DNA of 5,495 bases from IMG/VR virus record IMGVR_UViG_638341087_000011; one strand, written 5' to 3'. The stretch comes from a virus (lineage: Duplodnaviria > Heunggongvirae > Uroviricota > Caudoviricetes). Under the pieces are notes generated by a model. The model made no database searches, had not been told where the DNA came from, and worked only from the letters and a program-made list of their open reading frames with translations. The translations under genes were made by a program, and so were the position numbers. How positions within the stretch are numbered: the stretch's first letter is position 1; the number at the start of each line of letters is the position of its first letter. This document shows positions 5,315 to 5,495 of the stretch, in pieces.

Positions 5315-5495
5315 GTTAATACCTTATACAGAATCAATTAACAATTAATGGTTCTTCGGACATTGAAATTTATATCGCAAAAATTGGCAAACTCTCCTCG
5401 ACTACTCACTTGTGGGTATCCTGGCGTAAAAGGAATGACTTGGCAATACCCGGTGTGATCATAAGTCATTGAAAATGATCATTTTTATCAGTCTT

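Follow-up and report, generated by a model that had tools for sequence, protein, structure and literature searches.

The region upstream of a prophage beta-family gene: probably an ordinary 5' flank with a weak promoter

On balance, the 181 bp lying immediately upstream of the beta-family gene of a Rac-like Escherichia coli prophage (positions 5315-5495 of the 5,495-bp stretch of DNA analysed here, hereafter the window) appear to be an ordinary 5' flank, with a ribosome-binding site, a weak constitutive promoter that is probably TTGCCA-17-TTCAAT, and a pair of TGATCAT words without a dedicated function. The beta gene would be served by its ribosome-binding site and by a weak constitutive sigma-70 promoter situated in the gene-proximal half of an AT-rich spacer; a transcript starting from TTGCCA-17-TTCAAT would have a 5' leader of approximately 40 nt, and the TGATCAT words would have no dedicated role. 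Judging from the sequence, the promoter most probably lies within 5315-5495 and is most probably weak. The upstream region is not new in kind, and as it stands it adds a further, probably weak promoter region to those known for accessory genes of prophages.

The window shares 99.7-99.9% identity with Rac-like lambdoid prophages of E. coli (e.g. O111:H- 11128 and phage Rac-SA53) and carries the following genes:

+ strand, P22-Cro-like gene
+ strand, YdaT-family gene
+ strand, 358-aa open reading frame without a Pfam match, whose RefSeq counterpart is described as helix-turn-helix domain-containing
+ strand, DUF977 gene
+ strand, two small hypothetical genes
3679..4257, + strand, cII-like/sce7726-family partner gene, 192 aa (NCBIfam NF033832, 1.7e-56; PADLOC 'cll', 2.4e-28)
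4217..5314, - strand, beta-family gene, 365 aa (Pfam PF14350 Beta_protein, 2.3e-51)

The product of 4217..5314 is named 'beta family protein' in RefSeq and is matched in PADLOC by PD-Lambda-2_C (6.5e-41) far better than by the P4 'beta' model, while orthologues of the cII-like protein match Pfam Phage_P4_cII. The two genes are convergent and their 3' ends overlap by 41 bp, an arrangement that is kept, with an overlap of about 41 bp, in every orthologous locus examined. Together they make up a cassette of beta-family and cII-like/sce7726 genes, with no gop, placed between the replication/nin-type genes and the hok/sok locus of the prophage; its left edge is at approximately window position 3494. 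The stretch 5315-5495 is non-coding and constitutes the first 181 bp of a 375-bp non-coding spacer running from the beta gene to the hok/sok locus. The last base of the window corresponds to position 7971 of Rac-SA53 (L002), from where non-coding DNA runs 194 bp further, and generic hokD-locus homology, shared by thousands of E. coli genomes, resumes at L002 8166, 194 bp beyond the window. The spacer has a GC content of 35%, compared to 45% for the window. The 181 bp were found in 93 complete E. coli genomes, all of which hold the whole cassette, and nowhere else, and no relatives of the spacer outside the cassette were detected in the plasmid or phage collections searched, so the spacer belongs to the cassette. 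Lying antisense to the early operon of the prophage and behind this private 375-bp spacer, the beta gene needs a promoter of its own.

Candidate expression signals for the beta gene, all on the gene strand, are as follows:

5322-5325 (reverse complement), - strand, Shine-Dalgarno AAGG, 7 nt 5' of the ATG at 5314
5362-5367 (reverse complement), - strand, candidate -10 TTCAAT (4/6; T for A at position 2), from the sequence and a position-weight scan
5368-5384, - strand, candidate spacer of 17 bp, from the sequence
5385-5390 (reverse complement), - strand, candidate -35 TTGCCA (5/6 to TTGACA), from the sequence and a position-weight scan; the same in both E. coli alleles

The ATG at 5314 is a credible start, because of the AAGG at this distance and because the N-terminus of the protein (MTISYIPILK) aligns with those of its orthologues. 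The end of TTCAAT lies 47 nt from this ATG. In a rough position-weight scan, whose matrix uses consensus-base frequencies after Harley & Reynolds and whose scores are approximate, TTGCCA-17-TTCAAT scored 9.3 bits and ranked first on the gene strand over the 500 bp upstream, and the neighbouring hok promoter scored 12.5 bits in the same scan. When the sequence was dinucleotide-shuffled, a score of at least 9.3 bits turned up in 7.7% of cases for the 181 bp and in 19.5% for the 375-bp spacer. A consensus scanner listed no promoter in 5315-5495 and omits TTGCCA-17-TTCAAT because TTCAAT has a T at position 2; the A at -11 is nearly invariant in sigma-70 -10 elements. Promoter-like sites in 3300-5495 were not enriched, with 6 found versus 7.8 +/- 2.7 in shuffles. 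The original prediction had placed a sigma-70 promoter at these hexamers. Its motif coordinates all proved exact on re-reading the sequence, and the promoter it proposed is a reasonable choice in being the top-ranked one on the gene strand, with a -35 close to TTGACA and a spacing within 16-18 bp, but the -10 lacks the A at position 2 and the score is not above chance. TTGCCA-17-TTCAAT is thus a plausible promoter to which the sequence score gives no backing against chance. Both hexamers are unchanged between the two E. coli alleles described below; since these differ by only about 5%, conservation within the cassette lineage says little. In front of orthologous beta genes, promoter-like sites are weak and non-conserved, which would fit with low-level expression of beta.

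This flank resembles the promoters of prophage 'moron' or accessory genes in having an AT-rich (35% GC), private spacer upstream of a gene that is antisense to the early operon, and in carrying, at the usual distance, a -35/-10-like pair along with a Shine-Dalgarno sequence. It differs from them in that the -10 here is without the -11 A and the site does not stand above chance.

The beta transcript may instead start beyond the window, in the remaining 194 bp of spacer, or arise by read-through from the hok/sok side, with TTGCCA-17-TTCAAT being inactive. We regard this as a minority possibility, about as probable as one case in a handful, and it owes this standing to the lack of any terminator-like site between hok/sok and beta (none was found in L002 7700-8600). 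The chance-level score and missing -11 A of TTGCCA-17-TTCAAT are compatible with such an arrangement, and a further pair, TTAACA-17-TCAAAT, is present beyond the window end. The latter scored 7.6 bits, however, and the distal candidates as a whole score lower than TTGCCA-17-TTCAAT and are equally non-canonical, while read-through is pure conjecture. In addition, several orthologous lineages have their highest-scoring sites 30-65 nt from the ATG, as is the case here, which speaks against this alternative.

Two side observations concern the candidate promoter. In the second E. coli allele (L014, L058-L061) the candidate promoter spacer has G for T on the + strand (C for A on the gene strand), which creates a new, third GATC 62 nt upstream of the ATG. 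The word CATTGAAA, whose opposite strand contains the candidate -10 TTCAAT, occurs three times through the spacer (5361-5368, 5467-5474 and L002 8040-8047), at spacings of 106 and 97 bp.

The upstream DNA was compared across a footprinting sample of 11 genomic and 38 viral loci plus 8 further contig loci. Orthologous pairs with 47-73% protein identity came from Samsonia, Cedecea, Xenorhabdus, Phytobacter, Tatumella, Rahnella, Photorhabdus and Aeromonas, as well as from other E. coli elements and viral contigs. No upstream DNA similarity was detected between beta lineages, even at 73% protein identity, which makes a footprint impossible, and a k-mer search for a motif shared across 13 upstream lineages returned AT-rich words only. 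Within the cassette lineage there were 15 distinct upstream sequences, falling into two alleles about 5% apart.

Further upstream, the gene-distal part of the window contains four overlapping or neighbouring features, none of which is assigned to a strand:

5456-5462, gene-proximal TGATCAT with a GATC inside, from the sequence
5476-5482, distal TGATCAT, from the sequence, inside the 14-bp palindrome
5472-5485, perfect 14-bp palindrome AAAATGATCATTTT, with the distal TGATCAT at its core
5471-5489, Fur-box-like 19-mer GAAAATGATCATTTTTATC, matching the consensus GATAATGATAATCATTATC at 15/19

The two TGATCAT copies are 20 bp apart from start to start, and a -10-like hexamer, TATGAT (reverse complement of 5458-5463, on the gene strand), overlaps the proximal one. 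In the second E. coli allele (strain C311, P0001 protein cluster) the proximal copy reads TGATCC and is accompanied by an adjacent 2-bp indel, while both GATC sites, their 20-bp spacing, the distal palindrome, TATGAT and the Fur-like box are all retained.

The distal motif deserves separate consideration, as a palindrome of at least 14 bp arose by chance in 1.5% of 181-bp shuffles (4% for 375 bp) and a Fur match of at least 15/19 in 0.5% (1% for 375 bp and 5% for the whole window); being rarer than chance, the palindrome and the Fur match suggest that it may not be inert. One reading is that the distal TGATCAT forms the core of a Fur site at 5471-5489, possibly set against Dam methylation as at the sci1 promoter, which would render beta iron-responsive through the TATGAT promoter. 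We consider a Fur site here to be a low-probability alternative, somewhat less probable than a start beyond the window or read-through. Registers shifted 6 bp to either side match the Fur consensus at 12/19 and 13/19, as a hexamer array predicts; the only window sites reaching 13/19 are 5471-5489 and its 6-bp-shifted neighbour, and no further site of at least 15/19 was found in the approximately 296 kb of DNA fetched except copies of 5471-5489 itself. The verified Fur boxes of sci1 match at only 11/19 and 13/19, a level that the 15/19 site exceeds (PMC3145626), and neither allele has a change in TATGAT or the box. Against this, the scoring consisted of consensus matching only, with a consensus chosen after the sequence had been seen and from among many possible regulators, and AT-rich palindromes easily resemble a Fur box. 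Moreover, the promoter that the box would occlude (TAAAAA-18-TATGAT, of which it covers the -35 and spacer) has a very poor -35 and came 13th in the scan with 3.9 bits, while the -35 of the best candidate is found about 80 bp downstream of the box. In the 11 orthologous upstream regions scored, the best Fur matches were 10-13/19, which is the shuffle background (mean 11.4-11.9).

The known system that comes closest to such an arrangement is the sci1 type VI secretion promoter of enteroaggregative E. coli (EAEC). BclI recognises TGATCA, the sequence at the centre of the Fur-like 19-mer, which places a Dam site inside the predicted box. In EAEC the two Fur boxes (11/19 and 13/19) bind Fur, one of them holds a BclI-cut GATC, with competition between Fur and Dam there (Brunet et al., 2011, PMC3145626, from which the Fur consensus used here was also taken). 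The likeness therefore extends to a Fur box, or Fur-box-like sequence, with a Dam site inside and another GATC nearby. The difference is that the sci1 box overlaps a -10 and has been shown to bind Fur, whereas the box here is predicted, overlaps no convincing promoter and is not found at orthologous loci. That 5471-5489 functions as a Fur box enclosing a Dam site, placing the gop-less beta/cII module under iron-dependent and possibly heritable on/off control, is in our estimation very improbable. If it were true, a defence-type gene would have its expression coupled to low iron, a state that induces phage receptors belonging to the TonB-dependent class; and if bound by Fur, the site would be a second Fur/Dam arrangement of the sci1 type and the first to precede a prophage gene related to defence.

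The original prediction had proposed that the TGATCA(T) motifs could be a regulator binding site or confer Dam-sensitive control on beta. As a dimeric or tetrameric regulator site, or as a Dam/SeqA-sensitive element, the pair is equally hard to credit. Pairs of hemimethylated GATC sites are bound by SeqA when they share a face of the helix and are separated by no more than about 31 bp, and the 20-bp distance between the two hexamers, about two helical turns, is of this kind; both GATC sites and their spacing persist in both alleles, and any palindromic hexamer recurred within 30 bp in only 4% of 181-bp shuffles. The same figure rises to 11% for the whole 375-bp spacer, however, and since the original prediction came from screening the 5.5-kb window for anything notable, the recurrence is not significant. 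TGATCA itself occurred twice in 0.15% of shuffles, a figure for a word picked after being seen. The flanks of the two copies differ, an extended palindrome surrounds the second copy only, the second allele has TGATCC in place of the first copy, and some 65-95 bp separate the pair from the candidate -35 downstream. None of the 12 other upstream lineages belonging to orthologous beta genes has the pair, and in them GATC occurs 0-2 times per 300 nt and never twice within 150 nt. The GATC count here is also ordinary, with at least two in 17% of 181-bp shuffles. A Dam-sensitive switch requires a protein that competes with Dam at a GATC, and the sole candidate competitor found was the predicted Fur-box-like sequence over the GATC at 5477-5480; of the features of switches of the pap, agn43 and sci1 type, only the presence of GATC (two sites, 20 bp apart) was seen here. 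With one TGATCA copy altered in the second allele, the pair missing from 12 lineages and an ordinary GATC density, the proposed regulation by TGATCA(T) or Dam is not supported. In the sequences compared, the two TGATCAT words are a peculiarity of one cassette lineage, without a demonstrated or conserved regulatory role. Beta-family genes as such are not characterised by regulation through a TGATCA pair, and work on the family should therefore not start there.

Several other readings of the spacer were considered. Open reading frames of 20-43 aa are present, and a small gene was rejected as the longest of them (43 aa, on the gene strand) carries a frameshift in the second allele. A CRP site at 5454-5469, judged by eye, was also rejected; its left half is TGTGA, but the second allele no longer has this word, and at the canonical spacing the right half is mismatched. 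No relic of gop was found by tblastn with P4 Gop in the window and all loci, Rfam gave no match in the spacer (sok alone was detected, beyond the window end), and the fold z-score of the stretch was 0.0 versus shuffles. A prophage repressor operator was considered from the 11-mer GTTTTGATTTT, which is common to the immunity region and the spacer, and was set aside given that such sharing was seen in 6.7% of shuffles. The 11-mer lies at window 471-481, in the repressor/cro intergenic region, and on the minus strand at L002 8024-8034, beyond the window; the same intergenic region has repeated GTTTTGAT words, also at 517-524.

The cassette is related to two described anti-phage loci without being either. 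The gop-beta-cII locus of satellite phage P4 (Ghisotti et al., 1990, as cited by Rousset et al., 2022) protects against lambda and P1 (PMC9122126), and it has also been reported as an anti-phage system elsewhere (bioRxiv 10.1101/2023.04.06.535777). As in P4, the beta-family and cII-family genes are convergent here. In P4, beta follows gop by 2 nt, is co-transcribed with it and has no promoter region of its own, whereas here gop is absent and beta has a private 375-bp spacer unrelated to the P4 upstream DNA; the absence of gop means that the locus is not a gop-beta-cII system. PD-lambda-2 comprises a HigB-like A component, an Xre-peptidase B component and a beta-family C component (Vassallo et al., 2022, PMC9519451), and the C-type model matches the beta protein in our window. 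Its neighbours here are a cII-like gene and hok instead, and no HigB, Xre or peptidase domain was detected among the 8 window proteins or in the surrounding RefSeq annotation; lacking the A and B components, the locus is not PD-lambda-2.

The gop-less convergent module of beta and cII-like/sce7726 genes, with its overlap of about 41 bp, is kept across Enterobacterales, Aeromonas and many viral contigs. Loci of this type, with neither P4 gop nor the HigB/Xre genes of PD-lambda-2, include window 3679-5314 and the orthologous loci L003-L010, L016, L017 and L057. We found no literature report in which the beta/cII-like pair alone was tested as a system, and searching under the Pfam family name returned nothing relevant. 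Some family members in UniRef are labelled 'T4 beta protein'; the label is probably mistaken, as the namesake that could be checked is beta of satellite phage P4.

The cII-like partner differs from beta in its promoter region. Among the loci examined in this respect (L003-L009, L016 and L017), at least 7 have a conserved extended -10, TGCTATA, approximately 60-85 nt upstream of the start of the cII-like gene, often followed by TTTAAAGT, and the beta gene is without a conserved promoter comparable to it. The counterpart in the window (3612-3646) is ATGGCA-18-TAGAAT, inside the palindrome CCATGAT-N5-ATCATGG at 3628-3646.

Insertion sequences were seen next to the cassette in related prophages. 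In Rac-SA53 an IS1 (L002 5224-5989, corresponding to window ~3513-3520) is inserted upstream of the cII-like gene with the target duplication AAACATTT, and in O111 11128 (L001 9650-10863) an IS1203 separates the beta gene from hok; both IS1 and IS1203 are absent from the window. At the hok end of the spacer, the hok promoter TTGGCA-17-TAGAAT is located at L002 8143-8171, 172-200 bp beyond the window end, and the Rfam sok/hok leader begins at L002 8178. Generic hokD homology starts at the first base of the hok -10, which places the hok -35 in cassette-specific DNA, so the hok promoter straddles the cassette junction.
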